A stretch of 34,277 nt of DNA from a virus. The notes under the pieces are model-generated. The model ran no database searches and had not been told where the DNA came from. It saw only the letters and a program-made list of their open reading frames with translations. Position 1 is the stretch's first letter. Each line of letters starts with the position of its first letter. Of this stretch, positions 3,886 to 26,322 are shown in pieces. The position numbers and the translations under genes are program-made. The stretch lies in UHGV virus genome UHGV-0115522; one strand, 5' to 3'.

Positions 3886-4073
3886 TAAATATATTATTTT
3901 TAATGATAAATGATTGACAACTGACAAGTGACTTCAGTCAGAATCATCACATGCCCGGTACGGATGGATCCCCTTTCAAATATTCCATGGACGGCACAGT
4001 CTGAGTACCGGGCGCTACCTTCAGTTGTATTGCTAAGCCGCCGCTGGTGGCTTTTCTTTTTTGTAGGGGCGCT

Positions 4074-4718: not shown

Positions 4719-4771
4719 GCACAGTAATGAGGTGCTTAGATGTTCATATCAATATCCTAACTCTCTGCATC

Positions 4772-5461
4772 TCATAAATCTGATAGCCACTTACTATCTA
4801 TGGACTCAATCTCCGTCAGCGGAATTGATGGGAAAAAATATCCCTGAGCGCCCCATAGCCCTATCCCTTTTGATAACTTATGGCAATCAATGTTTTCGAC
4901 GCCTTCAGCGATGATATTCGGACATAACTTTTTTAAATTGCTAATAATGACATCAAAATGAGGCTTAATCATATGCTCTTGAAAAAATGACTTATCAAGT
5001 TTTATTGCATGATATTTATTTTTAATTAATGCTTTCATGGTGGCGTTACCACTTCCAAAATCATCAAGCCAAACATTATCTGTCAAAGTCAGTAGAAAGG
5101 ATATGATGTAATCCTCATCGCTTAAATCAGGATAGTTTTCTGATATCTCAATCGCTATAAATTTATTGTTTATTAGTAGTTCTTGAATTTGTTTATTGCC
5201 ATATATATATAAACAGGTATCATAATCTGCATTGATAGAGCATAATATATTATGGCATTCAAAAAAATACTTATACTTGATTATTGTGTTAAGTTGAGAT
5301 TTTAGCAAGTTAATCTTCATCTTGCTTGTAAACATACCTAATACTTTCTGAGTAGAAAGAATAGCCCCCTCGTTGGAATAAAATCTGCTCAACACTTCCA
5401 CTGCTATCAACTTGTTAGTGCTTGTGGAAATGATTGGTTCTACTATGTAGATAACTTCCAT
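4772..5461 (-). CDS. Standalone EAL-domain protein, predicted c-di-GMP phosphodiesterase
   Basis: 229 aa with EAL signature positions in order: EVL (in AVEVLSRF), EISE, DDFGSGNAT, IKLDKSF, IIAEGVEN, AQGYFF. GAGGG-type SD upstream of ATG. Gene is visibly AT-rich relative to the P1-like flanks. Confidence 0.8.
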   Translation of the reverse strand: MEVIYIVEPIISTSTNKLIAVEVLSRFYSNEGAILSTQKVLGMFTSKMKINLLKSQLNTIIKYKYFFECHNILCSINADYDTCLYIYGNKQIQELLINNKFIAIEISENYPDLSDEDYIISFLLTLTDNVWLDDFGSGNATMKALIKNKYHAIKLDKSFFQEHMIKPHFDVIISNLKKLCPNIIAEGVENIDCHKLSKGIGLWGAQGYFFPSIPLTEIESIDSKWLSDL

Positions 5462-5683
5462 GCTCCCACCCTCTATTTTTAAATTGGTTGGCTTTAGCAG
5501 ATAAAGTGCCCTTTATATTTACAGGGGTTACACACTATGTCAATTTATTTATCTGTAGTGAAATTGATAAAAATTAAATAATAAAAAGCAGCAACTATGA
5601 CACAAATCAATATTTTTATTTTTTGCACAACTTCTTGATTTCAGTGCTGCTGTATCTCTATTCTTGTTCAAAGCCTCTTTAGA

Positions 5684-6417
5684 ATGGTGGTAGCTATGTC
5701 AGGAGTCTGTTACTTCATCCTTATAAAGAAACCGATAAATTTTCAATTTCTTAAGGATTTCTTAATATTAAATTATGGTGATGTGCTGTTGCTTAAACAT
5801 TCTGAACGCGAATTCTTACAAACCTATTCAGATAAATATATCGAATTCGAACTTAATGATAGTGCTGTAAGAAACTATTTATCTTGTCACAATCACCAAG
5901 GGAAGCAACTTCTGGATAAATGCCCACATTTGCTAAAAAAGTCTTTTGCTTATCCTGATTTATTAATCAGGATGATCGATAATATAAGTGACCAGAATCA
6001 TATACATCCTGATTTTAAGGATGCTTTAACTTTTTCATTACTTTCAATTTTTAGTGATGTTGACAACCTTAGAGCTTTTCTTAAGTCTGGTATGCCTACT
6101 TTCTCAGGGAAAGTACGCAGCATATTTCTTTCAGATGTATCTAAACATTGGAAACTAAGAGACTTAACTGATTATCTATACATAGTGAGAGTTTAATAAA
6201 GAAAAAACTCTTATTAGAAAACACCTCCTTCAGTAAGTTATTACTTGATACACGAATGGCTTTTGCTATTAAATTACTAAAGCAAACCCGCCCCCTCAAA
6301 CAAGTATCAAAAAGTTGTGGTTTTAGTAGCATATCGTACTTTGTGTGCCTATTTAGGCAGTATTATAATTGTACACCATGTGAATATGTAAAACATCAGT
6401 TATCATCTGGGAAATAA
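5684..6417 (+). pseudogene. AraC-family transcriptional regulator interrupted by a frameshift
   Basis: Frame 2 ORF (5684-6196) ends with the first helix of an AraC HTH (KHWKLRDLTDYLYI). Frame 1 continues from about 6172 to stop 6415-6417 with the rest of the domain (SESLIKKKLL...LDTRMAFAIKLLKQTRPLKQVSKSCGFSSISYF...YYNCTPCEYVKHQ). The shift is near 6181-6190 and not in a homopolymer. Confidence 0.55.
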
Positions 6418-6455
6418 GATGCATTTATCTCCCAGATAGTATTGTAATATTAAAC

Positions 6456-6704
6456 TCAGTCAGCATTTAGTAGCAGAGCATTATCTATGATGATCTGCTC
6501 CCATTCTTCGAATGCCCGGTCGCGGACGCCCTGGGGAACGCTGTTTGTTTTGAAATCGACGACCGTCCGCCATTTCCCGTCCGGACGGTACATGCGCAGA
6601 GCTTTACTTCCCCCTTCCCTGCGCACCTCAACGTTATGCTTGTCAGCAAACTCTTGTAATGCTCGTAGCGTCCCATGCTTTACTGTGTAGTATCGCTTTT
6701 TCAA
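6456..6704 (-). CDS. lxc: Lxc/Bof-like C1 co-repressor (tentative)
   Basis: 82-aa ORF; size and position (downstream of the darB-like gene, same strand) fit P1 lxc/bof as I recall. Assignment rests on synteny and length, not a verified alignment. Confidence 0.5.
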   Translation of the reverse strand: MKKRYYTVKHGTLRALQEFADKHNVEVRREGGSKALRMYRPDGKWRTVVDFKTNSVPQGVRDRAFEEWEQIIIDNALLLNAD

Positions 6705-7141
6705 GTTTTCTCTCCAGCCTGTGCCAAGGCTTCAACTTCCAAATCGTAAGACTCAAACTCATAGTCCTGGTCGTCAACTTCTTCAGGGACTGGCAGTAAA
6801 TGCCAGGCTGAGTATATCTGACCATTATCAAAACGCTCCTGGCTGTAGAGCGTCGCGGCTATGAGTGTTAGCGCCGGGCGGTCATAACGGTAAAATTTGC
6901 GAACGTCACGGTCAACGAGACGACCGAAATTACCATAACCGCGCTCCAGTAATAATTTTTTAATTTCCGGCCAGTATGGGCCATAGCTGCGGTACAGGCG
7001 GGGATTTTTCAGTAATCGCCCGCGTAGCCCTGACAGGAAGAAATCAACGTATTCGTCTTCTGTCTTTCCTAACAACGCTGTACGGAGTACCGCCTCAAGA
7101 TATGTTTTATTCGGTTTTATTGTATCAGATAGTGTGGCCAT
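6701..7141 (-). CDS. Hypothetical protein (position of ulx in P1 as I recall)
   Basis: 146-aa ORF overlapping the next gene by 4 nt (translational coupling); no motif recognised. Confidence 0.5.
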   Translation of the reverse strand: MATLSDTIKPNKTYLEAVLRTALLGKTEDEYVDFFLSGLRGRLLKNPRLYRSYGPYWPEIKKLLLERGYGNFGRLVDRDVRKFYRYDRPALTLIAATLYSQERFDNGQIYSAWHLLPVPEEVDDQDYEFESYDLEVEALAQAGEKT

Positions 7142-7174
7142 ATTATGCGACGCCCGGCGAACCGGGCGCTCCTG

Positions 7175-10100
7175 TTATGCGTATTGTTGGATGACGGCCA
7201 GAACGTCCGCCACGTTGTGTTTTGTCTCGATAATCCACCAGTTGCCCGGGAAATCGCTGTTCTTCGCCTTCGCTGGCAGCCAGCGAGCGCCGAATTTTTT
7301 CTTGATTGCGTCTTTAGCACGGAAAAGAACGCCTTTCATGCCGGACGCCTCCTGAAGCCCAAATACCTCACCAGCTGCGAATTTTGGTGCGTACATCATC
7401 TTCAGGTCGGCGGTGGATACGCGATAATTCAGACCAAGAGACTGAGCTATGCTGGTGGCATCACCCTGTATTGATGATAACTCTTCTTGTTTCTCGTTTC
7501 TGGCGGCAATTTCTTCCTCCGTGATGTTGCCTAGGGCCAGGTTTATCCGATCAGCGTCGGCCTGTTTCTCTTCATCGGTGCGCCCGGCAAGAACCGTGTT
7601 AATTCTCTGCAATATCTCAACATGATTCTTGCGCATGCTAAGCAATTCCGGCGTAACCTCGTTAAGGTCCACCAGCCCAAGGATGGCAAGGTCGGAAAAC
7701 ATTGATACCAGGTTGTAGGTCATGCGATAGCTGAGTTGCCCATAGGCTGATGGCAACTGCACCGCATCCATTTGATAGGCATCCATAAATTTAGAGCCGT
7801 CGTTTACGACATCCGCAATTGCCGGTGTGATTTTCCCTGTGGTGGCGACCTCCCTGATTGCTGTTACCCACGATTGAGTCAGCGCGGCGACTGCATGATT
7901 CAGATTGGCTTTCCGTTCTGCTGCAATACGCGCGCTTGCAGCGTCCATTGCCTGCTTGATCTCGTCTTTATTGCTGTAAATGCCAATGGTGCCAAACTGT
8001 GCTGTGGTGATCTCATAATCTGACGCCCGGAACTCATGGGTACCGAAAATGGCATTGGTGACCTCAAGTTCAGAATCCCCGTTACGAGTAGCCCCCTGGC
8101 TTGTTTTCTCCGGCATTCTGGCGATCGCATCCGCTATTTTCTCCTGAATTGCTTCAGGGGATAGCGTATCTCCGTATGACGCGATTACTTCGCCATAATT
8201 GGAGCCAAACAGTTCAGTCAGGAATACTTCTGCCAAACGGACCTGGCGGTTATTCCCTTCCGACATCATACCAAGCACCCATTTTGCAATTGACGACTTC
8301 AGCGCGCCGTCACGGCGATCCTGGTAAACCGCATGCTTCAGTGGGTCCGTATAGGTACCAACAAAATCAATGCTATAGCCTGACTCTGTAGTCTGAACGC
8401 CGTATGAGTCAGTGATTTTGATCATGCCGCGCTGCTGGAAACGGTAGAAATCGTCACAGGAAATGATGTCGTTAATCCCGGCGATGGAGACGCCACCACT
8501 GATTTTCTGCATAACAGCATCTTCATCGGGAGTTACATCCACCTGTTTATCCAGCGTCTTCACATCCCAGTTACCCGATTTGGTGCCTTTGAAGGTAAAG
8601 ATGATCTCCACGTCTGCGCGCTGGCTGTCGAAGTCCAGCGACTTAATGCGAACGATATCACCGGCACAATCGTAGTATTGGCCTACACGCCATGAGCGAT
8701 CGCCGATAACAAGGAACTCATTCGCATGGTTAACCAGATCAGGATCAACATCCAGAATGCCTTTATTTATTGCATCCTCCACCAGCGGGCGCAGGCGTTT
8801 GATATCCGTCGCGGCCTTCTGAGTACGGTTCAATAATTTCTCATAGCGGGAGATGGCTTGAGTGATATTAGCCTTGCGCTGAATGGCGCTTTTCAACGAC
8901 GCGCGATAATGTGCTAACAACGTACGGTCTGTGTGATGGACGCTACCCCAGCGGGCCTTCCAGTCTGCATTATCAGCTGCTTTGGCCATTACCGCCTGTT
9001 TAAATTTAGCTACCTCGGCGGTGGTCTTTTCAAGTTCCGCTTTACTTCGCTCTAATTCAGCGGTAAGAGCCGCAACATCCTCGCCAGCTGCATGTTGCGC
9101 CTTGATGTAGTTCTGAAGGTCGATAGCGGCCTGTTCTTTCTGGCGGGCGCGTTGCGCGGCTTTCGCCTTATCCATTTGAACCTGCATCATTGCCAGACGT
9201 TCGCCATCATCCTTAGCGGTATACATCTGCATTTCGATCATATCGTTGGCGTCGGCGTTCTCCATTTCTGACTTATCTGAACGGAGGATATCGGAGATCC
9301 AGCCTGCTTTACGCTTCAGCGTCTTCAGTCGGTATTCATCGAAAGAACCCTTGCCGCAGTAGTAATGAACGCGAACGCTTGCACGGTTGGAGCCAACTCG
9401 GGCACCGCGACCGTTACGCTGTGCGACACTGGCTGGTGTCCATGGCAACGTCAGATGATGGATGTCAGTCGTTCCTCGATGCAGGTTGATACCCACCTCT
9501 GCCTTTTTGTTGCAGATGATGATCGGAGTCCGGCCCTCCTGGAAGTCGGCTGCAATCTTTTCCAGACCGCCCAACGACATTTCATTTTGCTGCGCGATAT
9601 AGGCGTCATACAGAGCCATTTGCTCGTTGTATTTCGCTATCTGTGCATCTGTTGGTTCATCCGGTAACTCTTTCGGCGGTTTAACCGCTTTCAGTTTCTT
9701 ACCGGTTTTACCTGCCTCGGCAACCGTCTGAGCATTCAGGATCCTTACCTTTGAAGGTTCAAGGTTAAGAGCATTGCAGATAATGCGCTTGAGCTTCTGG
9801 TGCTGCGTTTTTTCGTCGGTGAAGATGATTTGCTTCCCTTCCGGGAAAAACTCCTTCAGCGTGGCAATCAGCTTCGCGTATTTGGGCGTAACGGGGTGAG
9901 TTACGGTCTGTTCGTCAATGCCAAACCTGGCCAGGCGCTTATTCACTTCCTGCTCGAACGCTTCCGGAACCTGCAACTGAATAAACTCGCCCTTATCTAT
10001 CAGGGAGTATTGCGATTGCTGCGTGATTGAATCATCACTGTCGTCGTCTTCGCTGGTGGCTTGTTTAGGCAAACTGTCCGCCAGCTGCTGCACCGCATCG

Positions 10101-11200
10101 GCGTACTCCGGCAGGAAACGATAGGTGATCCGGCGATAGTACAGGTCCATGTCAGTACATACGCGGTCCATATCCCTGATTATTGAGAAGATCGGACGGG
10201 CTTTCTCGTGCTCAATCACTCCGTCTTCATCGACCGAGGTCGTTACGCCATTGTTGGCTTTGGCCACCGCTTCCGCCTGCTGGCGTAATTCTTCATACGC
10301 CGCCAGTTGTTCTTCAGTAAGTGGTGCATCCTGCTGGTGTTCGTCCAGTTCCGGGATCTCCACGGTATCCTTAACGTCTTCCGCCGTTTTAAGCGTTGTC
10401 CAGCGATGGAATATGCCGCGCAGCGCATCAAGGTTTTCAAAGCCCACCAGCGCCATTTTTTCTTCAACTTCACCGCTGATTTTCTGTACCGTTTCCAGCC
10501 TGGTCTTGCCGAAGAATTTAACGAAGTCATCAGGACCGTAGATCCCCATCTTCTGCCAGTATTCCTTCGGCAGCACATGAGAAAGCATGTTGTATGCATC
10601 GATCGGGGTGTTAACGACTGGCGTTGCAGTCAGGAGAACCGGTCCGCGCCCACCATTCTTTTTCATCAGGTACGCGTTTTTAATTGCCATATCCCGCGCC
10701 GATTGCGCCACCGCGCTGGTGGGCAGATAGGCCAGTTGTGACGCTTCGCGACCATTTTTATAGCTATTGCGGTAGTTGTGACCTTCGTCAGCGATCACAC
10801 TATCGAAGCCCATATCCTCAAAGTACGGATACTTCTCTGCTTTTTCGGTACCGGTATCTGAATACTCCGACAATACCCGGCGACGCGCGGCCTCTTTGCG
10901 GTGGGAGTCGGAGTCCATTGCGCTGGCTACGCGCCCGGCGGCAACGAAGTCATAAAGCATATCCTGTGCATGCTCATCTACGGTGTCATCACGTAGCGGA
11001 GTGCGGGCGTATTGTTCTTTGGTAAACACGACTGCACGGTAATTTGAGTGCGGGATCGCGTTCATCCGCGCCGTGATAGTGGCTTCATCTGCCAGTTTTA
11101 GGGCATCGCGCATAACTGGAGTGCCATCAGTACCAAGAACAGGAGCACCTCCCACGCTAACGCGCGGGCCCCGAATCTCACCGTTCTGAAACCACAACAA
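7175..11200 (-). CDS. DarB-like superfamily-2 helicase, apparently missing its 5' portion
   Basis: 1341-aa ORF with helicase motif II (VIADEGHNY), motif III (LLTATPVVN) and motif VI (QRNGRGARVG), but no Walker A (GxGKT) in the 135 aa before DEGH. Frame closes at 11207-11209 just upstream of a TTG start. Long C-terminal extension. Confidence 0.65.
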   Translation of the reverse strand: MLWFQNGEIRGPRVSVGGAPVLGTDGTPVMRDALKLADEATITARMNAIPHSNYRAVVFTKEQYARTPLRDDTVDEHAQDMLYDFVAAGRVASAMDSDSHRKEAARRRVLSEYSDTGTEKAEKYPYFEDMGFDSVIADEGHNYRNSYKNGREASQLAYLPTSAVAQSARDMAIKNAYLMKKNGGRGPVLLTATPVVNTPIDAYNMLSHVLPKEYWQKMGIYGPDDFVKFFGKTRLETVQKISGEVEEKMALVGFENLDALRGIFHRWTTLKTAEDVKDTVEIPELDEHQQDAPLTEEQLAAYEELRQQAEAVAKANNGVTTSVDEDGVIEHEKARPIFSIIRDMDRVCTDMDLYYRRITYRFLPEYADAVQQLADSLPKQATSEDDDSDDSITQQSQYSLIDKGEFIQLQVPEAFEQEVNKRLARFGIDEQTVTHPVTPKYAKLIATLKEFFPEGKQIIFTDEKTQHQKLKRIICNALNLEPSKVRILNAQTVAEAGKTGKKLKAVKPPKELPDEPTDAQIAKYNEQMALYDAYIAQQNEMSLGGLEKIAADFQEGRTPIIICNKKAEVGINLHRGTTDIHHLTLPWTPASVAQRNGRGARVGSNRASVRVHYYCGKGSFDEYRLKTLKRKAGWISDILRSDKSEMENADANDMIEMQMYTAKDDGERLAMMQVQMDKAKAAQRARQKEQAAIDLQNYIKAQHAAGEDVAALTAELERSKAELEKTTAEVAKFKQAVMAKAADNADWKARWGSVHHTDRTLLAHYRASLKSAIQRKANITQAISRYEKLLNRTQKAATDIKRLRPLVEDAINKGILDVDPDLVNHANEFLVIGDRSWRVGQYYDCAGDIVRIKSLDFDSQRADVEIIFTFKGTKSGNWDVKTLDKQVDVTPDEDAVMQKISGGVSIAGINDIISCDDFYRFQQRGMIKITDSYGVQTTESGYSIDFVGTYTDPLKHAVYQDRRDGALKSSIAKWVLGMMSEGNNRQVRLAEVFLTELFGSNYGEVIASYGDTLSPEAIQEKIADAIARMPEKTSQGATRNGDSELEVTNAIFGTHEFRASDYEITTAQFGTIGIYSNKDEIKQAMDAASARIAAERKANLNHAVAALTQSWVTAIREVATTGKITPAIADVVNDGSKFMDAYQMDAVQLPSAYGQLSYRMTYNLVSMFSDLAILGLVDLNEVTPELLSMRKNHVEILQRINTVLAGRTDEEKQADADRINLALGNITEEEIAARNEKQEELSSIQGDATSIAQSLGLNYRVSTADLKMMYAPKFAAGEVFGLQEASGMKGVLFRAKDAIKKKFGARWLPAKAKNSDFPGNWWIIETKHNVADVLAVIQQYA

Positions 11201-11724: not shown

Positions 11725-11976
11725 ATGCCCAGTATCATTTTGTCTGACACCAGTGCAAGCGTCAGTGAGCTGAAAAAAAATCCGATGGCAACTGTCAGTG
11801 CCGGAGAGGGGTATCCTGTTGCCATTCTTAACCGGAATCAGCCAGCATTCTACTGTGTCCCTGCTGAGCTCTATGAAAGAATGCTTGATGCCTTGGATGA
11901 CCAGGAGCTGGTAAAACTGGTTACTGAACGCAGCAGTCAGCCTCTGCATGATGTGGACCTGGACAGTTATTTATGA
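11725..11976 (+). CDS. stbD: RelB/StbD-family antitoxin
   Basis: 83 aa (MPSIILSDTSASVSELKKNPMATVSAGEGYPVAILNRNQPAFYCVPAELYERMLDALDDQELVKL...) matches plasmid StbD antitoxins from memory; overlaps the toxin gene by 4 nt (ATGA). Confidence 0.85.
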   Translation: MPSIILSDTSASVSELKKNPMATVSAGEGYPVAILNRNQPAFYCVPAELYERMLDALDDQELVKLVTERSSQPLHDVDLDSYL

Positions 11977-12260
11977 CTTATACAGTAAAATTCCGGGATG
12001 ATGCACTGAAAGAATGGCTCAGACTGGACAAGACCATTCAGCAGCAGTTCGCAAAAAAACTGAAAAAATGCAGTGAAAATCCTCATATAGCTTCTGCAAA
12101 ACTACGTGGATTAAAGGACTGCTATAAAATCAAACTTCGCGCATCAGGTTTTCGTCTGGTTTATCAGATTATTGATGATATGTTAATTATTGCGGTCGTC
12201 GCAGTAGGTAAACGTGAACGCAGCAACGTTTATCATCTCGCCAGTGAACGGATGAAATAA
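11973..12260 (+). CDS. stbE: RelE/StbE-family toxin (mRNA interferase)
   Basis: 95 aa (MTYTVKFRDDALKEWLRLDKTIQQQFAKKLKKCSENPHIASAKLRGLKDCYKIKLRASGFRLVYQIIDDMLIIAVVAVGKRERSNVY) with RelE/ParE-fold hallmarks; coupled to the antitoxin. Confidence 0.85.
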   Translation: MTYTVKFRDDALKEWLRLDKTIQQQFAKKLKKCSENPHIASAKLRGLKDCYKIKLRASGFRLVYQIIDDMLIIAVVAVGKRERSNVYHLASERMK

Positions 12261-13119
12261 TATCCTGGTCAGCACTCTTTCTTACCTGCTTCCATTTTTT
12301 CAGTGATTCTTTTCCTGCATGCAGAAAAAAAGCCTACCCTGTGGGCAGGCATAACAGACAATCGCACAGTCAGTGTTGAAATTAATGATGTCACGCATTA
12401 TACCCGGTGGATACACAAACCATCCCTGCAAATGCATTGGCATCCTAATCAACGTCTGAAACAACTGCAATGGCCGGACCTGTGATTTCAGAGAAAGTTA
12501 TTATGTTTATTGAATATAACCGAAGTGATAAATAAAAGTATTATCACCTTTAATATTTATGCTTATTGCGTGGTTTTATCTGGTTATATAAAGCACAGAT
12601 GTTCTTATTATTTTCTGAAAAATAACCATATGGATCGATTTCCCCCACCCAGCCGAAGCGGTTCGGCTCGTTCGGCGTATCGTCGACACTGAAGCGCTTA
12701 TCCATTTCGTTCCAGCGGTAAGAGTTGTCGCTGTCGCTGACGAATGCCATCGGGTCGCTAAACAGCGTGATCCGCCATGCGATCAAAAAGCGTAAGTGTT
12801 TCCGACAGACGAGCCGGTGAAAAAAGTGGTGTGTCTGGCAATACAGGCATCGTCCCCGAAATGGACGATGCCGTTGAAGGACTGGGGTATGGCAATAAGC
12901 CGCTTTATTATCGGATTCAGTGACCGCCTGGACGGTTACTTTTGAGAAAAGGCATTTACACACAATCCTAAACAGACTCCTATATTTCAGATTTTGTTAT
13001 CAACGCATTTCAAATCTCTTAGAAATCATTACTGTCGTCATATTTTCCGAGGCAGCTCACCACCTAACTATGTCTTATCAACAATATTTTGTGAAGGATA
13101 TTTATAATGTAAAGACACA

Positions 13120-16100
13120 TCAGAAACGATATTCCACACTCAACATGGCAGATGTATTATGGTATCCATGTTCTCCAAGTTGAATGCCTGCATCAGCCCG
13201 GAATGCTACTTCTGGTGTTATCATTCCCACAACACCACCATTTATTTCTCCGATATCACGCGCACCATCCTGGTATATACTTACACCATTCATACTGGTG
13301 CCGAAAACACGACTATTGTGCAACCAGTGTGCCTCCACAAATGGTCTGAACGGAACCGCATACCGCGTATTTTTACCGTTTTTGCTGGTAAGCCATGTTC
13401 TTGCTCCCAGGCGGGTGAGAATATTTCCGTTACCGGTATTTTCAATACTGGTTCCGTTACTTTCATGATATTTGTCTGATTTTACATTCATCCGGACAAC
13501 CTGAAGCTGCGGCTGAACATACCATTCATGACTTCCCTTGTAATTGTCGGTAAACTCTCCAGCCTTCCATGAATATCCTGCTTCCAGAGATACCGTAAAC
13601 CCTTTTGACTTCCATGACTCAGCAGGCAGCCGTTCTCCATTTATATGATTATCAAACCAGCTGTATTGCAGCCAGCTATCAAGATAAGAACCATTGTGTG
13701 TTTCATCATTGGCATACCATGTTGCATAAAGACCCGCTGTGTATCCATTCATTCTTCCTTCCGAATGGTATCCGGTGCTCAGGGCATTCGTACTGTTATT
13801 ATTATGACCATAGCCAGCCATCATACCTGTATGCCAGCGATCGGTACCATTCAGGCTCCACTGAGCTATATCTCCCCCTATTAACACAACGTAGCTATTC
13901 CCCCGGGTTCTCAGCTGACTACTGTTGTCACGCCAGCGATTATGTTTTCCTTTATTATACATCCAGATACCTGCTTCATTTTCTTCTCCTGTCATGTGGC
14001 TGATATACAACTCCTGTCCCTGTCGTTCATACAGATTCGTTACAAACAGATTATTTGCAGCAGCAATACTGGCAACATAGCTACCTGCCTCAGGACGCAA
14101 ATTATTATCATGGCTTTCCGGTACAGCTTCAGGTTGTGGTACAGGAATGTCTTTTCTGCTAATCAGATACCAGTTAGTGCTGTTAATCCCCTGACCACGT
14201 TTCAGTATGTAATCATAAGCTCCGGCTGTAATACGTTCCGTCTGAATGAATTCAGCATTATCAGCATTGCCACTGACGTGAATCACTTCAATCCCATTAA
14301 GTGTCTCTGCACCAGTACCACCGGCCTGAGTAACAGCGACACGGGTACGGCCACTGGCATTACCTTTAATCACCAGACGATCTGTTTTCGAATTGTCACC
14401 ACCTGTTTCTGTCTGGAGGAGAATAAGTCCATTTCTGCCAGTGTAATTCCCTCCGACAGTCAGTATATTACCCGGCATATATGTAGTGAGATCGACTATA
14501 CCACTATTGCTCAGATTTCCTGCAACGCCCCCAAACCCGGAGAGTTTGCCCTGCTCTTCAACAATGACCTGGTTACTGCCGAGCATCACCGGTGAATCTG
14601 CGTTCCCCAGTATCACTGTCCCCTGAATAATATCTGTCATCCCGGTCCATTTTGCGTTATCGCTAATGTTCAGTGCACCTGCTCCCGTCTTGCGAACATT
14701 ACCATAACCACTGATATTGTTGGTAAGCTGCCATGCTGATGTACTGTTCAGAGTTAATGTGCCATAGTTATCAACAAAGGCTGTCCCCAGATTATCAGCC
14801 GTGGATACAGCCAAATGAGCCCCCTTATTCACGGTAAAAACACCGGAAAAATTACGATTATTACCCGTTATATCAAGCATTCCCCCATTTATGTTCAGAG
14901 AACCATCCCCTGCAATAGTACCTGCAGATTCTCCTCCATTATTCAGTATCAGGCTTCCGCCATGAATGTTCAGCACAGAGCCTGCAGCCGTCAGTAGTTT
15001 GCTTATTGTCTGAGGATACCCATTCATATCCAGTTCTGCGCCACGGGATAAATATAAATACTCAGTCCGACCAAGAGCATCAGGTGCAGCAAGAATTAAT
15101 ACGCCAGATTTAACCTCTGTATTTCCTGTATAATTGTTTGTTGCAGAAAGTATAAGAGTACCATTACCTGATTTTGTCAGACTTTTGCCGTCCCAGCCAT
15201 CATATAATAAAGGTGAAAGATTATCGGAAAGAGAAACGCCTATGTTCAGAGTGGCATCTTTTTCTATATTAAAGGTTCCATATCCCATCCCTTTTGTATT
15301 ATTCCATCTCAGCATGGATATCAGTTTGTTATCGTCGTCATTTAAAGACGTATAAACATAACTTTCAGCACCTTCTGTCAGTAATGCATTGTATTGTACA
15401 ATGTGACTATTATCAGCGATCGAGATACCTGTGTCTGACGACAATAATGTGTAATAGTCCTGAGTCCAGTTCTTAATTGATGTGTCTATATTAAGCCATG
15501 AATCACTTTTTAATGTAATAGTATTTGCGTGAACATTAGCATTTCCTACAGACAGGTTCATAGATGCGTCTTCATCAATACTTATATTTCCGTTAAAAAT
15601 GGAGTTCTTGCCTGACAGATAAACAGATGAGCCATTCCCAATCATTAGCCCACCATTAATTGCTGTTGCGTTATTGATGTTTTTAATAATTAATTCATTT
15701 GTACCATTAACAGGTATACTAGCTAGTTTAATATCACCATTAATCACAGAATCTGAATAAATATCTAATGAATTATACCCGCCAGAAAAAATTATTGATG
15801 TATTATAAGCATCTTTTTGGCTATTATATAATCCTGAAAGATTACCATGATTACTAATATGGATATCTTCTCCATAAACAGAGCAACCACCGTCGGGGCC
15901 ATATCCCCCCTGAACAATACCGTTATTATTCAAAGTGATTTGATTTCCAGAAATAGCATCTCCCCCTTGTTTTATTCCATATCCTCCAGATATCATGTTG
16001 CCGTTAGTAATGAAAAGATTACTACCATTAATACCATCACCACCGTTTACGCCATTACCGCCCAATATTCCTCCGGAATTATGCACTGTAATATTGCTAC

Positions 16101-16617
16101 CGGTTACACCGGAACCACCTGTCCCACCTACATCATCACCTCCGTATATACTTCTGTAATTATCAACTATAATATCATCCCCGCTTAACCCTGCACCTCC
16201 GCTACTTCCTGAGCCACCAAGACCATTACCCCCATATACATTTCTGTAATTGTTTATAGATATTTTGTTGCCACTAACAGCAATTCCACCATTATATCCA
16301 TCGCCTCCCCAAACACTACCATTATTATTTAGCGTAAAGTTTTCACCGTAGACACCTGCACCACCGATTGATGTATTGCTTGTTCCTCCTTTGATGTTAA
16401 TACTGCTTTCAACAGATAGTATATTTTGAGTATAACTTGTTTTATACGGCACGCTGATATTAAGCGCCGCGTTTCCATCAACACCTGTAATACTCCTGGT
16501 TATACTTTCAGGTATACCATTACCATTCAGTTGTATTGTTTGCGCACCAGAAAAATGAGACTGCACAGAATAAATTATACTGACCAGAAATTGTAAAATT
16601 CGTATATTCTTATTCAT
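13120..16617 (-). CDS. Autotransporter (type Va) with AIDA/pertactin-like glycine-rich passenger and C-terminal beta-barrel
   Basis: 1165 aa. N-terminal signal peptide (MNKNIRILQFLVSIIYSVQSHFSGAQT), long passenger with reiterated GG-x-G-x-NG-type repeats, and a C-terminus ending ...SAMLSVEYRF typical of outer-membrane barrel closure. AT-rich. Confidence 0.85.
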   Translation of the reverse strand: MNKNIRILQFLVSIIYSVQSHFSGAQTIQLNGNGIPESITRSITGVDGNAALNISVPYKTSYTQNILSVESSINIKGGTSNTSIGGAGVYGENFTLNNNGSVWGGDGYNGGIAVSGNKISINNYRNVYGGNGLGGSGSSGGAGLSGDDIIVDNYRSIYGGDDVGGTGGSGVTGSNITVHNSGGILGGNGVNGGDGINGSNLFITNGNMISGGYGIKQGGDAISGNQITLNNNGIVQGGYGPDGGCSVYGEDIHISNHGNLSGLYNSQKDAYNTSIIFSGGYNSLDIYSDSVINGDIKLASIPVNGTNELIIKNINNATAINGGLMIGNGSSVYLSGKNSIFNGNISIDEDASMNLSVGNANVHANTITLKSDSWLNIDTSIKNWTQDYYTLLSSDTGISIADNSHIVQYNALLTEGAESYVYTSLNDDDNKLISMLRWNNTKGMGYGTFNIEKDATLNIGVSLSDNLSPLLYDGWDGKSLTKSGNGTLILSATNNYTGNTEVKSGVLILAAPDALGRTEYLYLSRGAELDMNGYPQTISKLLTAAGSVLNIHGGSLILNNGGESAGTIAGDGSLNINGGMLDITGNNRNFSGVFTVNKGAHLAVSTADNLGTAFVDNYGTLTLNSTSAWQLTNNISGYGNVRKTGAGALNISDNAKWTGMTDIIQGTVILGNADSPVMLGSNQVIVEEQGKLSGFGGVAGNLSNSGIVDLTTYMPGNILTVGGNYTGRNGLILLQTETGGDNSKTDRLVIKGNASGRTRVAVTQAGGTGAETLNGIEVIHVSGNADNAEFIQTERITAGAYDYILKRGQGINSTNWYLISRKDIPVPQPEAVPESHDNNLRPEAGSYVASIAAANNLFVTNLYERQGQELYISHMTGEENEAGIWMYNKGKHNRWRDNSSQLRTRGNSYVVLIGGDIAQWSLNGTDRWHTGMMAGYGHNNNSTNALSTGYHSEGRMNGYTAGLYATWYANDETHNGSYLDSWLQYSWFDNHINGERLPAESWKSKGFTVSLEAGYSWKAGEFTDNYKGSHEWYVQPQLQVVRMNVKSDKYHESNGTSIENTGNGNILTRLGARTWLTSKNGKNTRYAVPFRPFVEAHWLHNSRVFGTSMNGVSIYQDGARDIGEINGGVVGMITPEVAFRADAGIQLGEHGYHNTSAMLSVEYRF

Positions 16618-17201
16618 ACTGTTTTTTCTTTAGTGATGCATTTTTTATCAACCATACAAGCACATTATTTCATTGATACTAATCACATCAGGATGAATGT
16701 TTTTTCTCAATAGAAATAAGTGTCTTTATTTCTTACCAATTTATTCTGGTTATTCCTCTTATCCAGACGTCTCGTGATACTCCCTGTATTTATTATAGAG
16801 TATATATATGTACTGCGTTTAAATCATGAAGACGACAACCTGTTTTACATAAATTATTCCTAAGTATTTTTCCAGAGAAGACCTAGGTATAATGATGTGC
16901 ACTGTCTGGTTTTCTTACAACTGACTTAGCGATCTGCATATCCGTGATAACGCCTGAATAAATAGGACGAGAGAACTCTTAACCAAATAATCTAACACTT
17001 TTAATCGACAGGAATTAAAAACCCGGGGAGGTTAAAAAAACACAAAAAAATGGATGTTTATTCAACTCTGGTTACGTACCATGAGGACTGCATCCACAAT
17101 GCACCGGCAATTAAATGGCTTTCATTGATTGATTTTTTATATCTGTGATGATTTTTTGCTCCATTCCTCAAAAAATGGACGCAACTTCCCCTCTGCGGCT
17201 C

Positions 17202-17555
17202 TCAGCTGTATACCCGCTGTCGTGCCAGTGGCTCATGCATCATGACCAGCTCTGCCAGACGGTAGCCCCGCTTCAGCCCCGTAAACCGCATCTGACCTCC
17301 GCACAGGATGCACTTCAGCGGGTCAACCTTCAGTAACCGCTGATACACCCTTCTCCGCCTGATTTGCATCGCCGTTTTTCTCTCCGTTTCTGTTATGACG
17401 TACACAACATTTTCCAGTAACCGGCGCTTCACCGGACTCAGGAACCCGTTGTCAACGCCACGATGTTTGACCGTTCTGGGGATGCGGACGATTTCCTGGA
17501 CTGCTTTATCATTCCAGCCCGCATTGTTGGCGGTACATTTTGGGGCTGACTGCAC
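17202..17555 (-). CDS. C-terminal fragment of an unidentified gene cut by the adjacent IS (possible transposase remnant)
   Basis: 117-aa ORF whose 5' end overlaps the end of the IS3-family transposase. Contains CILCGG; family not recognised. Confidence 0.25.
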   Translation of the reverse strand: MQSAPKCTANNAGWNDKAVQEIVRIPRTVKHRGVDNGFLSPVKRRLLENVVYVITETERKTAMQIRRRRVYQRLLKVDPLKCILCGGQMRFTGLKRGYRLAELVMMHEPLARQRVYS

Positions 17556-19043
17556 CCGGCGATAATTTTATACGCCGCTCGTTATACCATCTGATGTAAG
17601 TATCCACTTGCTGCATGAACTTTTCTGGCGTGATGCCCGACCATTTACGCCCATAATACATTTCCGTTTTCAGTCTGCCGAAAAAGCCTTCGCATGCCGC
17701 ATTATCAGGTGAACATCCTTTGCGGGACATTGAGCGAATAAGACCTTCTGCATTCACTCTTTCCAGCCAGCCTGACCAGCGATAATGCCCACCTCTGTCA
17801 CTGTGTATCACCGGTCGTTCACCAGCATTTAACGTTTCGACAGCGCTATCCAGCATAGTGTTGACCAGTTCAGCATCGGGGCGTGTACTGAGAGACCAGC
17901 TCACAACTTTTCCATCGAAGCAGTCCACCACCGATGATAGCCAGACTTTACCTGCAGGGAGGTGGAACTCCGTGATATCTGTCAGCTATTTCTGATTAGG
18001 TTGCTCCGCCTTAAAATCTCTGGCGATAAGGTTATCCGGAGCCGGTCCGATTTCTCCGCAATATGAGCTGTAGCGGCGACGACGGTTACGGCTGACGACA
18101 AGCTGTTCTTCCACCATAAGTCTGCGTACAACCTTTTCTGATAGCCGCCCCCCCCCTCATGCCTGAGCATCGCATGCAGGCGACGATAGCCATAACACTG
18201 GTAATTACTGTTAAATATATCTGTCAGCATCGTACGTATCGTGGCGTATTTATCACCGGCTTTCAGTGCAGCCCGGTGATAAAAATAACTGCTACGGGCA
18301 AGGCCCAGAACATGCAGTAATTCTGTCAGGGGATATGTTTGTCTCAGGGCATCAGCGATCTTCGTTTTCTCTCTGTTGTTCAGGTGACTGATACTGATGC
18401 CCGGGTCTTTTTTTATGATTTCCTCCGCCTTTTTCAGAATATCCAGCTCCATCTGCCGGCGGCGTATTTCCTGATTCAGTCGGGCGACTTCCTCCCGCAA
18501 CGCATCGCGTTCTGCCTCCAGGGAAGGTTCGTTATGTTTACGCATAGTCTGGTAAGCACTGTTGCCGATAATTTTATCTTTCCATTTATACAATACCGCA
18601 CGACTGACACCAATACGCCTGGCGATTTCACTGGCTGATACTTGTCGTGTACAGAGTGCCATGACAGCCTGACGTTTGACTTCTGGTTCAAAGGGCGCAA
18701 CCGGGTTGGCCTTACTGGTAAATATACGTCGTCTGTCGGGATAAAGTTCATTAACCCAGCGAGCGAGTACATCAGTGCAGGGATAACCCAGGGCTCTGCT
18801 GGTAAACGCCAGGCAGCAGCCGTGGTTAAGATAATGTTCAACGGCAACCTGTTTTTGCTCATCGGAGTAACGGTGCTTATGACGAATGGATTCTTTTGCG
18901 CCACCACCTGCTTCCCATGAGCGGATCCAACGCCGCAGATTTCTTTTCGAAGGGTAGCCCAGTTCGCGTACGACGGGAGCCAGCTTCTTACCATATTTGA
19001 AATAAAGCTCAATGGCGCGGATTTTTTCTTCTTCAGTAAACAT
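17509..19043 (-). pseudogene. IS3-family transposase (OrfA-OrfB), disrupted
   Basis: ORF 17982-19043 has two HTH modules plus the OrfB N-terminus; ORF 17509-17931 has the DDE-integrase C-terminal part (HSDRGGHY...SPDNAACEGFF...WYNERR) in another frame. A 9-nt C homopolymer (18148-18156, G9 on the coding strand) lies in between. Confidence 0.65.
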
Positions 19044-19095
19044 GTTTTATCTCCTGAGAGTCCAGGAAATCGTCCGCATCCCCATTTACCGTCTT
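17509..19095 (-). mobile_element. IS3-family insertion sequence, degraded
   Basis: Boundaries approximate, set from the extent of the transposase ORFs and the start of the adjacent IS911-like element. Confidence 0.5.
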
Positions 19096-19108
19096 ATATC
19101 TGTAGTGG

Positions 19109-21229
<2,121 letters not shown>

Positions 21230-21492: not shown

Positions 21493-21676
21493 TATGGCAC
21501 CTGTGTTGTTCTGAGGTGAGCATATCACCTCTGTTCAGGTGGCCAAATTCAGTAAACCACTTCAGAGGGAAACGTTCAAAAGCAACCGCCGGGAAAATGA
21601 AGGCTGAAGGGCAGAAAAAAGGTTACCCGATGTTAAAGAACGTGAGGTCAGAGACGGCGTTCTGTGCTTCCGTCGT

Positions 21677-22021
21677 GTGGCTGAGCGCGGCACGGAGCCA
21701 AAAAATACGAATTCTCCCGAGTGGTGGGCGTGGCGCTGGTCCGCACATTTCGGCCTTTGCGAAGATGAGAATGAAATTGCCAGCGGCAATAGTGCATATG
21801 GTGCTCTGAACCTGGCTTTCCATATCGGATTCAAACATGTAGCCCTGGTGGGCGTTGACGCTACGCAAGAACCACGCGTTCATTCCGGCGGCACGCCAAA
21901 AAATCTAAGTCACCTGCCTTTGTTATTCCAGTCTGCGCGTGAACAGATTGACGTTGTTTCATGCGGGAAAATGGGAGGTATTCCGCAGATGACTCTTAAA
22001 GAATGGCTGAAGAATACATGA
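21677..22021 (+). CDS. Hypothetical ORF between the IS block and the phosphatase gene (possible remnant of the preceding P1 gene)
   Basis: 114-aa ORF with GTG start; its stop (22019-22021) overlaps an in-frame ATG of the phosphatase gene (ATGATG), suggesting coupling. No motif. Confidence 0.3.
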
Positions 22022-22695
22022 TGGCACCAACAATTTATCACCGTATCGACGGTACCAAATACAGGAATATCTGGGTTGTTGGTGATCTGCATGGTTGCTA
22101 CACCAGACTGATGTCCGAACTCCATCGTGTGGATTTTGACCCTGCGCAGGATTTACTGATATCGGTCGGCGACCTTATCGATCGCGGCACCGAAAATGTT
22201 AAATGCTTGGAGCTATTGCAGATGCCATGGTTCAGAGCGGTTATGGGCAACCATGAGCGGCTGATGATTGATGCGTTAAGTCCTGATGGCAACGTGAATA
22301 ATTGGCTAATGAATGGCGGTCAATGGTTCTTCATGCTGGACGCTGATCAGGAAATATTAGCCAGGGCGCTGGTGGAGTTGGTAAGACGACTGCCCTATAT
22401 CATTGAGTTGAACACCGGGCAAGAAACTATCGTTATAGCCCATGCCGACTATCCGGATAATGAATATCAATTCGGTAAGGAGGTGCCGCTTTTCAACGTT
22501 GTCTGGGCGCGCGAGCGTATCAGTGATTCGATGGATGATATTGGTGGCGAAATTTCGGGCGCAGATCGTTTTATCTTTGGTCACACTCCGGTGAAAAGCC
22601 CGAAGACATTCTGGAATCAGCATTATATCGACACTGGTGCCGTATTTTGCGGAAACCTGACATTGATGAAAGTGAAAGGTGATGGTGCAGCATGA
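22003..22695 (+). CDS. ppp: Ser/Thr protein phosphatase, lambda-phosphatase/PrpA-like metallophosphoesterase
   Basis: Motifs GDLHG, GDLIDRG, GNHE and C-terminal GHTP in PPP-family order. True start may be ATG 22018 or 22021. ppp is the P1 gene name as I recall it. Confidence 0.8.
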
Positions 22696-23393
22696 AGATT
22701 GCTTTAGTTCTTCGCTCTGGTGGTGACTATAACGCTTCCGATGTGCAGTGGCTGGTTAATCAACTGCCAAAAGGCTATGAAATTATTTGCCTGACAGACC
22801 TGAAGCGTTTACATGTACCTGGCGTCAAAGTTGTCCCATTGATCAACCAGTGGCAAAAGTGCCGTGGCTGGTGGACGAAAATCGAGTTGTTCCGACCGGA
22901 TATAACAGATGATCTGTTCTATCTGGATTTGGACACAGTTATTGCCGGTGATATACGCCCAATCCTTGAGAATCCACCAACCAGCTTCACCATGCTTAGG
23001 GATTTTTACCATCCACAATATCGTGGTAGCGGTGCCCTGTGGATACCAAATAGTGTAAAAGCGCATATCTGGAGTTCATTCTGGCAAGATCCGGAAGGTT
23101 GGATTTCTCGTTGTGTCACTACTGAGTGCTGGGGTGACCAGGGGTTCTTACGAAAGGTTATGGGCGATGATACACCAGCATTTCAGGATCTGTATCCAGG
23201 ATGGTTTGTAAGTTACAAGGCCGATGTTGTGGAACCTGGTTCAAAATATGCGAGCGCGCGTTACTCCAGGGGGAATGGGGCATTACCAAAAGACTGCCGA
23301 ATAATCTTTTTCCACGGCAAACCGCGACCTCGCGAAGTGTCAGAGGATTGGCTTCCCCTTATCAGCTCATTTTTTGAGCGAGAATCAGAATAA
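22692..23393 (+). CDS. Hypothetical protein with a possible GT-A-like DxD motif
   Basis: 233 aa, start overlaps the phosphatase stop (ATGA). A hydrophobic strand followed by LDLD ([14 protein letters not shown]) resembles the DxD motif of GT-A glycosyltransferases. Weak inference. Confidence 0.6.
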
Positions 23394-23394
23394 T

Positions 23395-23411
23395 ATTGCT
23401 CTAATAATTTC
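23395..23411 (+). promoter_or_regulatory. C1 operator-like site
   Basis: ATTGCTCTAATAATTTC (15/17), beginning 2 nt after the stop of the preceding gene. Confidence 0.7.
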
Positions 23412-23420
23412 ATATTTTTA

Positions 23421-23449
23421 AAACGTGATGTACACTCATCACGTTTTTT
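23421..23449. terminator. Symmetric hairpin with A/T runs on both sides (possible bidirectional terminator)
   Basis: aaacgtgatg-tacact-catcacgttt (10-bp stem) with T-runs on both flanks, between two oppositely oriented operator-like sites. Confidence 0.5.
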
Positions 23450-23460
23450 ATTAGAGCAAT
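23444..23460 (-). promoter_or_regulatory. C1 operator-like site
   Basis: Reverse complement ATTGCTCTAATAAAAAA (14/17); inverted relative to the site at 23395-23411. Confidence 0.65.
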
Positions 23461-23474
23461 CTACAAGGTGCGCT

Positions 23475-23693
23475 ATGTGGCCATTCCGACGGAAATATCA
23501 CTACTGGCTGATCGCCTTTGTTACGCCGACCGGCGGTATCAGGCATGTAATCACCAGGTATCGCAACAAGAGACTCACCTTAGCCAGAATTTTACAGGCT
23601 GCCATAGGTGAGGGACTGGATACAAATTGCGTAGTCCTTCCACCTTCATACTTAGGAAAAATGACCGAAGCACAAGCTAATACGGAACTTTGA
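23475..23693 (+). CDS. Small hypothetical protein, first gene after the operator pair
   Basis: 72-aa ORF with AAGG 7 nt upstream of ATG; ends 1 nt before the next gene. Confidence 0.45.
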   Translation: MWPFRRKYHYWLIAFVTPTGGIRHVITRYRNKRLTLARILQAAIGEGLDTNCVVLPPSYLGKMTEAQANTEL

Positions 23694-23694
23694 A

Positions 23695-24957
23695 ATGAGC
23701 ACTTCAGCACAAAACCAATCAATCGAAAATGTATCTATCCCTGACGTCCTGAATGCCGGTATCCCAGCCATTATCCAGAACATCCGGGCCGCGCAACGCC
23801 GCGTTAGTTGTGATGACCTCACAGCGCGTTTTTTTGATAATGCGGTTCAGTCAGCGGAGATGCTTCACGCACAGCTTATTGATGTTTATAACGCAGAAGC
23901 TGATAGCCATAACTCCCTGGTAGATGCAGCTGAAAATATGCAGTTGGATCTCGGTCTGAAGGGTAAAGAAATTGAAGAGCTTCAGCTACAAATTGAACAT
24001 TTGAAACGCCAGCAACAGGACGCGATCGACGATGCGACGCATGACGCCAACCAGCGTGCTGATAATGCCGAACGTATAAGCATTGAGCTGGAAACAAAAC
24101 TCAATGAAATGACCGCGATGGTTGAACTGCGGAACTCACAGATTTCAACGCTAAAATCTCAATATAAAGAGATCATGAAACTTGATCCTTTTAACCTTGA
24201 GAAACGCTATAACAAAGCTAAAAGCGAGCGACAGGAACTGCGTAAGCAGGTCGCCGATCTTAACCAACAGCTCAAAAAAACTATTAAAGATGCAAGCGAA
24301 GCGCGCGTGGCATTTGCTAATAAAAAAGCAGAGGTTACCGCGCTGGTTAATGAGAATGCCAAATTTGCGACGCTCAAGAAGGAAATGTATGGCATTACTG
24401 AGCGCCGTTTCCCTGCAAGCAAACTTCATCCGACGTTAGGGCAAATCTCCTTCTTCCCGCGCCTCCTGGCTTATGGGATCTCATCGCCTAAAGAGTTCAA
24501 TAACGAGCGTCCTTATATCGTTTCTAAGCTGGACTTTGCTTATCAGTTCTGCTGCGACATGGGCTATGCCATTGATATCCGAATCAACGAATGGTTGATG
24601 CCAAACTTCCAGCCGCTGGCCATTTTCCGCGAGTTCCAGCCGGAAGGTTGGGTAGAGTTCTTCCATGAATTGATCTGTAAAGAGATGGAAAGCCGCCGCC
24701 CGGAACTGGTCCGCCGTGTCGAGTGGGCGCAAGAGGTTATGTTGGCAGATGCAGAGCTGCCGTTCGAACCGGAATTTATTGATGATCTGGCAGCTAAAGG
24801 GCTGCATACCCTGTTTGATGTGGTTACCCGCCGTCATGAGCAGTTGGTTGTCGAATTGGGTTTAGAGGAAACAGCGGCAAGAAGACTTCTCGATGTTTGC
24901 TATGCACGTAGCGATGCATGGGAAAAAGAGAACGGCGGCACTATTTACGTTCGCTGA
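23695..24957 (+). CDS. Hypothetical protein with a long coiled-coil-like central region
   Basis: 420 aa; central about 200 residues are rich in E/K/Q/L heptad-like sequence. No catalytic motif recognised. Confidence 0.7.
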   Translation: MSTSAQNQSIENVSIPDVLNAGIPAIIQNIRAAQRRVSCDDLTARFFDNAVQSAEMLHAQLIDVYNAEADSHNSLVDAAENMQLDLGLKGKEIEELQLQIEHLKRQQQDAIDDATHDANQRADNAERISIELETKLNEMTAMVELRNSQISTLKSQYKEIMKLDPFNLEKRYNKAKSERQELRKQVADLNQQLKKTIKDASEARVAFANKKAEVTALVNENAKFATLKKEMYGITERRFPASKLHPTLGQISFFPRLLAYGISSPKEFNNERPYIVSKLDFAYQFCCDMGYAIDIRINEWLMPNFQPLAIFREFQPEGWVEFFHELICKEMESRRPELVRRVEWAQEVMLADAELPFEPEFIDDLAAKGLHTLFDVVTRRHEQLVVELGLEETAARRLLDVCYARSDAWEKENGGTIYVR

Positions 24958-25029
24958 CAGTTACAGTGTCACTTTTAATGCTGGTGGAGTGCGCCCACCA
25001 GCATTTTTTTCGTCCAATGAGGAGGGCAT

Positions 25030-25536: not shown

Positions 25537-25552
25537 TTGCTCTAATAAATAT
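25536..25552 (+). promoter_or_regulatory. C1 operator-like site
   Basis: ATTGCTCTAATAAATAT (16/17), overlapping the stop of the HAD-like gene. Confidence 0.75.
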
Positions 25553-25634
25553 TGATTTTTAAAACAGAGAAAGTGAAAATAAAAACATGCCGCAAGGCGC
25601 GGCATGTATCCAATCAATCACAGGAGCTGAAAAT

Positions 25635-25721: not shown

Positions 25722-25730
25722 GGGGGATGC

Positions 25731-26312: not shown

Positions 26313-26322
26313 CCGTTTTTAC

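Follow-up and report, generated by a model that had tools for sequence, protein, structure and literature searches.

The DNA analyzed here is a stretch of 34,277 nucleotides from the virus genome UHGV-0115522, and is called the window below at its full length. It harbors on its minus strand, at 13120..16617, an open reading frame (ORF) that is almost certainly an intact allele of aatA, the already characterised gene for the avian pathogenic Escherichia coli (APEC) autotransporter adhesin A. This identification follows from the length of the ORF, from a near-identical copy on the E. coli B chromosome, from the 19 C-terminal substitutions found in the allele of a ColBM-type plasmid and from the FNR box located upstream of the gene. 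The analysis shows that the ORF is intact and defines the domains and fold of its product, the allele, the variant of its promoter and its distribution among genomes. Experimental work on aatA dates back to 2010, and the locus of the window brings no new mechanism; its practical value lies in annotation.

Identity and architecture of the aatA allele

The reading frame comprises 3,498 bp, starts with an ATG and encodes 1165 residues with neither internal stop nor frameshift. The published aatA is a 3,498-bp ORF for a 124-kDa adhesin, located on the chromosomes of IMT5155, BL21 and REL606 and on plasmid pAPEC-O1-ColBM, always with mobile-element sequences on its flanks (Dai et al., 2010, PMC2944236). 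The chromosomal copy of E. coli B, termed an aatA homologue at the BL21/REL606 locus by the same authors (PMC2944236), is 99.8% identical to the window gene at the DNA level over its full length, and only 5 of the 1165 residues distinguish the two proteins (99.6% identity). The protein of the ColBM-type plasmid differs at 35 residues, exactly 19 of which are in the C-terminal domain, and 19 is also the number of C-terminal substitutions published for APEC_O1 versus the other alleles (PMC2944236). This ColBM-type allele adjoins an ABC-transporter cluster, possibly eit; aatA was not found in the first 50 kb of pAPEC-O1-ColBM. The window protein belongs to a cluster of 6,327 member sequences at 90% identity, beyond which identity falls to about 50% in the next relatives. 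Like the loci described by Dai et al. (PMC2944236), that of the window is a single gene with mobile-element flanks and a conserved promoter of about 250 bp. Since its coding sequence is nearest to the E. coli B allele while its promoter is the APEC variant, the locus is, as judged by sequence comparison, a recombinant mosaic of an APEC-type promoter and an E. coli B-type coding sequence.

The gene and the parts of its product are the following, residues being counted from the start codon:

13120..16617, minus strand: aatA coding sequence, intact, 1165 amino acids plus stop (ORF list, Pfam/NCBIfam, homologue matches)
16543..16617, minus strand: predicted Sec signal peptide, residues 1-25 (MNKNIRILQFLVSIIYSVQSHFSGA, followed by Q; sequence inspection and hydropathy profile)
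15808..16542, minus strand: glycine-rich repeat stretch of the passenger, residues 26-270 (composition, self-similarity, model)
15094..15489, minus strand: IcsA-like central passenger, with VirG insertion domain at residues 377-434 and PATR repeat at 480-508 (Pfam PF22364 and PF12951; phmmer)
14203..14469, minus strand: type 1 autochaperone (AC_1), residues 717-805 (Pfam PF18883, E 6e-24)
14113..14160, minus strand: proline-rich linker, residues 820-835 (allele alignment; predicted local distance difference test, pLDDT, below 50 at residues 825-835)
14050..14094, minus strand: linker alpha-helix, residues 842-856 (DSSP on the model; placement in the barrel lumen predicted)
13123..13968, minus strand: 12-stranded outer-membrane beta-barrel (translocator), residues 884-1165 (PF03797, TIGR01414, model)

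The first-pass annotation had read this ORF as a type Va autotransporter of 1165 residues, with a glycine-rich beta-helix passenger and a C-terminal barrel, and had proposed a domain search for the barrel and for a pertactin-like passenger. Both were recovered by profile, the autotransporter beta-domain PF03797 at residues 884-1143 (Pfam E 1e-34) and the Pfam Pertactin family at residues 729-818, and the generic barrel model TIGR01414 of NCBIfam matched with an E-value of 4e-96, so that this reading stands, the uninterrupted frame included. At the N-terminus, heuristic criteria indicate the Sec signal peptide of a type Va autotransporter, with a basic n-region (K3, R6), a hydrophobic stretch at residues 7-18 and an SGA/Q cleavage motif at 25/26, cleavage probably occurring after residue 25; a SignalP prediction was published for the near-identical AatA protein (Dai et al., 2010, PMC2944236). 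Residues 26-270 contain 24.5% glycine and form rungs of about 25-30 residues, self-similarity peaking at lags 25 and 30. The centre of the passenger aligns by phmmer with the IcsA passenger (PDB 5ke1, E 1.8e-56) in two stretches, 376-549 and 666-824, the IcsA autochaperone (PDB 3ml3) is matched by sequence search with an E-value of 2.8e-24, and the AIDA-I transport unit (PDB 4mee) by phmmer with 1.4e-73.

An AlphaFold2 model built from an alignment of 35 homologues reached a mean pLDDT of 87. Residues 1-23 are predicted to be disordered (pLDDT <50), the passenger is all-beta from residue 26 to about 820, with short regular strands at pLDDT >90 in its glycine-rich part, and the translocator consists of twelve long strands from 883 to 1164, preceded by the helix at 842-856. 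When compared with the PDB by Foldseek, the model matched first the AIDA-I transport unit 4mee, with a template modelling (TM) score of 0.97 on the target and a root mean square deviation of 1.3 A, then the IcsA passenger fragment 5ke1, followed by the barrels of EspP, Hbp, BrkA and NalP, the Ag43 passenger and 3ml3. As modelled, with its barrel, linker helix, beta-helix and autochaperone, AatA is a classical type Va autotransporter that combines an AIDA-I-like translocator with an IcsA-like central passenger.

The comparison with the AIDA-I, Ag43 and TibA families suggested by the first-pass annotation holds in part: the C-terminal unit is AIDA-I-like and Foldseek retrieves Ag43, but the protein as a whole does not reach the AIDA-I equivalog model (NF033176), on which it scores 275 bits against a cut-off of 1200, with an alignment confined to residues 649-1165. 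Similarly, the other named NCBIfam equivalogs tried, MisL, ShdA, YfaL/EhaC and ECSE_1600, remained, like AIDA-I, far below their cut-offs, the C-terminal part alone being aligned.

Alleles differ in the length of the linker. That of the window holds one VPQPEA unit, and the allele of plasmid NZ_CP055025.1 presents 12 additional residues (VPQPEAVPQPEA) after residue 825, i.e., two more VPQPEA units (36 bp). Coding sequences of 3,498, 3,516 and 3,534 bp (+18 or +36 bp) are in circulation, which suggests an 18-bp repeat of variable copy number between the autochaperone and the pore helix.

Upstream region, expression and function

The region upstream of aatA, first noticed as about 500 bp of AT-rich sequence, is confirmed as such: its 528 bp (16618-17145) have a GC content of 33.3%, as compared to 46.1% for the whole window, and fall within the lowest 5% of 528-bp windows. 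The low GC content is most pronounced next to the gene (28.7% over the proximal 254 bp, 37.6% over the distal 274 bp), and the first 1.6 kb at the 5' end of the coding sequence have 37% GC. The 700 bp that precede aatA in six further contexts were aligned with this region, and what all have in common is limited to about 250 bp next to the gene. Homology ends at 16863 for the E. coli B chromosome and at 16871 for the ColBM-type plasmid, beyond which IS3-family sequences abut both copies. The proximal 254 bp are near-identical to those of the ColBM-type plasmid and of Escherichia phage phi456, and the 243 bp that follow (16872-17114) are common only to P1-derived plasmids and phi456, being found in neither the chromosomal nor the ColBM contexts. 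Three features were thus delimited:

16618..16871, minus strand: conserved aatA promoter region, 28.7% GC, IMT5155/APEC_O1 variant (upstream alignment)
16697..16710, minus strand: FNR box TTGAGAAAAAACAT, ending 80 bp before the ATG (sequence; reverse complement of the published site)
16872..17114, no strand: distal upstream flank, about 38% GC, non-coding (shared-sequence comparison)

The FNR site predicted at -79 of aatA in pAPEC-O1-ColBM is ATGTTTTTTCTCAA, given on the opposite strand (PMC5481319), and the same box occurs in the window, as far from the ATG as in the published promoter. FNR shifts the aatA promoter fragment in an electrophoretic mobility shift assay, and an fnr mutant shows lower aatA-lacZ activity (PMC5481319). 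The promoter variant of E. coli B/WEC shows 49 differences over the first 200 alignment columns and lacks 4 bp within the FNR box. Transcription of aatA in BL21 was found to be roughly six-fold lower (Dai et al., PMC2944236), and we infer that the FNR-box deletion of the E. coli B-type promoter may be behind this. The variant carried by the window was transcribed in LB and was functional when cloned (PMC2944236).

Such AT-rich upstream DNA had been likened in the first-pass annotation to that of xenogeneically silenced genes. In that case, H-NS bound to the promoter and to the 5' half of the gene would keep a cryptic adhesin off until an anti-silencer or an environmental cue relieved it, a proposal that bears on regulation only and leaves the identity of the gene as aatA untouched. 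Several autotransporter genes of E. coli are under H-NS repression. The GC contents given above agree with silencing, which the AT content makes plausible, as does the failure of Li et al. to detect AatA in vitro in APEC_O1 (reported by Dai et al., PMC2944236). However, the same promoter variant is transcribed in LB and the cloned native promoter works, FNR is reported as a direct activator, and our literature search found no paper reporting an action of H-NS on APEC aatA. Moreover, the window is equally AT-rich at about 4800-6300, so that low GC alone proves little. Overall, silencing, although plausible, appears rather unlikely.

The preferred reading is that of an adhesin expressed from an APEC-type promoter. 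Expressed from its native promoter, AatA makes a fim-negative K-12 strain more adherent to DF-1 chicken fibroblasts, and adhesion is inhibited by anti-AatA or by the passenger fragment (PMC2944236). Moreover, aatA is strongly linked to avian isolates and the APEC_O1 allele adds to virulence in chickens (PMC2944236). According to a review, AatA belongs to autotransporter Group 8 together with IcsA, ShdA, MisL, YfaL and EhaA, i.e., to the outer-membrane-anchored adhesins (PMC9289746). By analogy with these other alleles, from which they are carried over, adhesion, a contribution to virulence and control by FNR would apply to the allele of the window.

Transcription would start within the conserved AT-rich 254 bp upstream of the gene, which correspond to the APEC-type promoter with its FNR box at -79. 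The 25-residue signal peptide would then route AatA to Sec export, and the C-terminal 12-strand barrel (884-1165) would insert in the outer membrane, its lumen being filled by the helix at 842-856. The passenger (26 to about 820) would be threaded outward and would fold from the autochaperone (717-805) into a long beta-helix, made of the glycine-rich N-terminal repeats and the IcsA-like centre, that would remain bound to the cell surface and mediate adhesion.

Several points weigh against this reading. The identity of the gene was tested through proxies, the E. coli B chromosome and the ColBM-type plasmid standing in for the IMT5155 and APEC_O1 records. The Shine-Dalgarno sequence of aatA is weak, and a simple sigma-70 consensus scan of the minus strand at 16618-17145 revealed no strong promoter. 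The position of the promoter rests on the literature, because a sigma-70 and terminator consensus scan of 12200-17500 performed no better than on shuffled sequence, in which sites were just as numerous. Given that AatA of APEC_O1 escaped detection in vitro in the work of Li et al., its expression may be low or conditional, and the review mentioned above gives the host receptor of AatA as unidentified (PMC9289746). In addition, a glycine at residue 206 (codon at 15999-16001, within the glycine-rich repeat region) is private to the window allele, the six other alleles compared having D206. Finally, expression and function of AatA in this particular strain are what we infer.

A different function would be that of a mainly self-associating autotransporter of the AIDA-I/Ag43/TibA type, involved in cell-cell aggregation and biofilm and not in binding to a host receptor. 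The C-terminal unit is indeed nearest to AIDA-I, the Foldseek matches include the Ag43 passenger, and a 2011 article by Wang et al., whose title names "cell aggregation", reportedly deals with roles of AatA in colonisation and aggregation. On the contrary, the score on the AIDA-I model is far too low, the only repeat family found by Pfam is PATR, the repeats have a period of about 25-30 residues and not of 19, and no glycosyltransferase ORF adjoins aatA. Furthermore, adhesion to DF-1 cells and its inhibition have been published (PMC2944236), and Group 8, with IcsA, ShdA and MisL, is set apart from Ag43 and AIDA-I (PMC9289746). We therefore consider self-association as the main function unlikely.

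The adhesin reading also has to be weighed against decay. The gene might be a non-functional remnant, passively kept among insertion sequences (IS) on a defective prophage-plasmid, given that its surroundings are all degenerate (truncated darB, an alkaline-phosphatase fragment, IS91 and IS3 pseudogenes). This is very improbable for a 3.5-kb frame that is open and at least 98% identical over 665 genomes, with a confidently folded model and a conserved promoter and FNR box; the pseudogene reading is rejected on account of the open and conserved frame. An IcsA/VirG-like role in actin-based motility, already disfavoured, is hardly credible: the passenger centre and the autochaperone are clearly homologous to those of IcsA, VirG insertion domain included, and both proteins have a glycine-rich N-terminal region, but this homology spans the scaffold and not a demonstrated N-WASP-binding region, the bacteria that carry aatA are commensal and APEC strains of extracellular E. 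coli, laboratory strain B among them, and adhesion and aggregation are the only phenotypes reported.

Distribution and genomic surroundings

A surface adhesin on such an element had been regarded as unusual cargo, a view that does not survive comparison with available genomes. Of 5,426 complete E. coli genomes, 688 carry the known gene aatA, which occupies 486 chromosomal and 250 plasmid places and is at least 98% identical across the 665 genomes that hold it at near full length. The gene is also found in 231 plasmids of PLSDB (221 with at least 80% of the gene), hosted by Escherichia, Salmonella and Shigella, and at least 158 PLSDB plasmids contain whole the junction of truncated darB, toxin-antitoxin (TA) module and aatA (window 10700-13400). 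Plasmid NZ_CP055025.1 matches window positions 1-20391 at 99.7%. Plasmid p13QT4 covers 97% of 9300-34277 in four pieces and shares the IS30-ppp junction, its P1 arms and aatA block being ordered differently round the circle, a difference suggesting that IS elements have rearranged plasmids of this lineage. aatA is thus the typical cargo of a widespread plasmid lineage.

The only phage record with aatA is that of Escherichia phage phi456 (OR339795.1, Punavirus P1, 89 kb, host MC1061), a spontaneously induced, infectious P1-like phage of APEC. Its "Orf60 hypothetical protein" (8055-11552) is a 3,498-bp gene, 99.6% identical to that of the window at the DNA level and differing by 6 residues, and its aatA module corresponds to window 13066-17114. 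The authors of phi456 reported that VirulenceFinder gave no virulence genes and ascribed the reduced adhesion and colonisation of the phi456-cured strain DE456 to lower expression of fim (type 1 fimbriae). The intact aatA of phi456 thus seems to have been overlooked, a modestly new point, and its loss is an obvious alternative or additional cause of the defect of the cured strain. We found no open-access paper linking aatA to P1-like elements, phage-plasmids or p0111. Because at least 158 of the 221 plasmids with a near-full-length gene share the junction and phi456 carries an intact aatA, lysogenic conversion could spread the adhesin. A wider proposal, tentative and short of probable, is that aatA travels outside chromosomes mainly on P1-derived plasmids and infectious P1-like phages, that lysogenic conversion spreads it and that its loss partly explains the defect of cured DE456.

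Recognising aatA on P1-derived plasmids would sharpen virulence-gene calls in poultry and One-Health surveillance. The name aatA covers two unrelated genes, that of the enteroaggregative E. coli (EAEC) dispersin transporter and that of the APEC adhesin. A Bangladeshi survey reads "aatA" as an EAEC marker, with the highest frequency in chicken isolates and some positives carrying a p0111 replicon (PMC6968650); these positives may correspond to the APEC gene.

In the window, aatA lies, as stated by the first-pass annotation, between a TA module (11725..12260) and an IS cluster (17202..21167), both supported by Pfam and by RefSeq annotation, within a P1 backbone:

1258..11143, no strand: P1 backbone left arm, cre to 5'-truncated darB (97.9% identity to P1 positions 1-9876)
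11725..11976, plus strand: Phd/YefM-family antitoxin gene, left border of the cargo block (Pfam PF02604; same annotation in identical plasmids)
11973..12260, plus strand: RelE/ParE-family toxin gene (Pfam PF05016, E 3e-15)
12261..13119, no strand: degenerate spacer 3' of aatA, 42% GC (RefSeq annotation of syntenic copies)
17202..21167, minus strand: IS cluster, mostly degenerate (RefSeq annotation of identical arrangement; Pfam rve, HTH)
21565..34222, no strand: P1 backbone right arm with ppp, pmgS, pap, humD, doc, HNH endonuclease and c1 (95-96% identity to P1/P7/SJ46; PHROG)

The spacer contains an "alkaline phosphatase" fragment (about 12601-12741) and a frameshifted hypothetical gene (about 12740-12945), and 817 bp of this degenerate non-coding DNA downstream of aatA (12303-13119) had been included in the range of the first-pass annotation. 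The IS cluster is made of a partial IS91-family transposase (17202-17447), degenerate IS3-family elements (about 17509-19056 and 19122-20019) and an IS30 (20016-21167). Pfam gave no match for the 137-residue ORF 12550..12963 nor for the 117-residue ORF 17202..17555, whose identities were taken from RefSeq syntenic copies. An Rfam scan of the whole window yielded no match.

The cargo block abuts the P1 left arm at 11143/11144. The next 480 bp or so (11144-11620) match at about 92% thousands of IncF plasmids, usually near the start of the record, and the TA module with this flank looks IncF-derived. Homology between aatA contexts is limited to a segment that begins at 12151 or 13023 and ends at 16863 or 16871. 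The chromosomal island of E. coli B is homologous to window 12151-16863 and has the same alkaline-phosphatase fragment and an annotated partial RelE toxin (locus positions 10358-10465). This island still carries the final 110 bp of the relE-like toxin gene (12151-12260), so that the TA-linked arrangement predates the chromosomal copy, which derives from it. aatA forms a one-gene module with IS remnants on either side, and it has been transferred between chromosomes, IncF ColV/ColBM plasmids and P1-derived plasmids. At the locus of the window it is accompanied by a Phd/RelE module of IncF-like type, within a P1 backbone that is defective, beside the 5'-truncated darB.

The description of the backbone as a phage-plasmid remnant is a fair label. 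The P1 genes present (cre, ref, mat, darB, pmgS, doc, c1) are 95-98% identical at the DNA level to P1, P7 and SJ46, and none of the structural, lysis, packaging and replication gene set was found in the 34-kb window. On the P1 map, about 55 kb with the structural, lysis and replication genes presumably lie between darB and ppp and would thus be missing at the cargo junction; similarly, we take the pac terminase genes to lie between doc and c1, here spaced by about 1.25 kb, and thus to be probably absent. With its two P1 arms fused through the cargo, a truncated darB and only about 1.25 kb between doc and c1, the element looks defective and not inducible. The darB ORF (7175-11200) is 5' truncated, with 1341 residues that keep the helicase C-terminal domain, the methyltransferase part being gone; in identical plasmids, RefSeq has it as an intact 3,891-bp gene for a "helicase-related protein". 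The left arm also harbors non-P1 cargo, namely an ORF with a methyl-accepting chemotaxis protein (MCP) signalling domain (43-861), positioned directly after IS26 in NZ_CP055025.1, and an EAL-domain protein (4772-5461) within the AT-rich region at about 4800-6300 (29-36% GC).

Comparison with known systems

The N-terminal part of the IcsA passenger is glycine-rich, a feature shared with AatA. Like IcsA/VirG of Shigella flexneri, AatA has a VirG insertion domain, a PATR region and an autochaperone, and both belong to phylogenetic Group 8 (PMC9289746). In contrast to IcsA, AatA is not known to localise at a pole or to recruit N-WASP, and it occurs in non-invasive E. coli.

With AIDA-I, AatA shares a closely related autochaperone, linker helix and 12-strand barrel (4mee, E 1.4e-73, TM 0.97), whereas its passenger is unrelated in sequence and below the model cut-off, and no Aah-type heptosyltransferase gene is located nearby. 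Unlike AIDA-I and the self-associating type, it also lacks the 19-residue imperfect repeats, its main lags being 25 and 30.

The element itself resembles P1-like phage-plasmids with cargo, such as RCS47 with SHV-2, SJ46 and phi456, by a backbone that is 95-98% P1 and by cargo associated with IS elements, phi456 sharing the very same aatA module. It differs from them in that its P1 arms are joined across the cargo block and its darB is truncated.

The closest known system remains AatA of IMT5155, APEC_O1 (pAPEC-O1-ColBM) and BL21/REL606, to which the window corresponds by its 3,498-bp gene, its domain order, its single-gene IS-flanked locus and its APEC-type promoter with FNR box. Unlike these loci, that of the window is a mosaic, has the private G206 and is carried by a P1-derived plasmid instead of a chromosome or an IncF ColBM plasmid.

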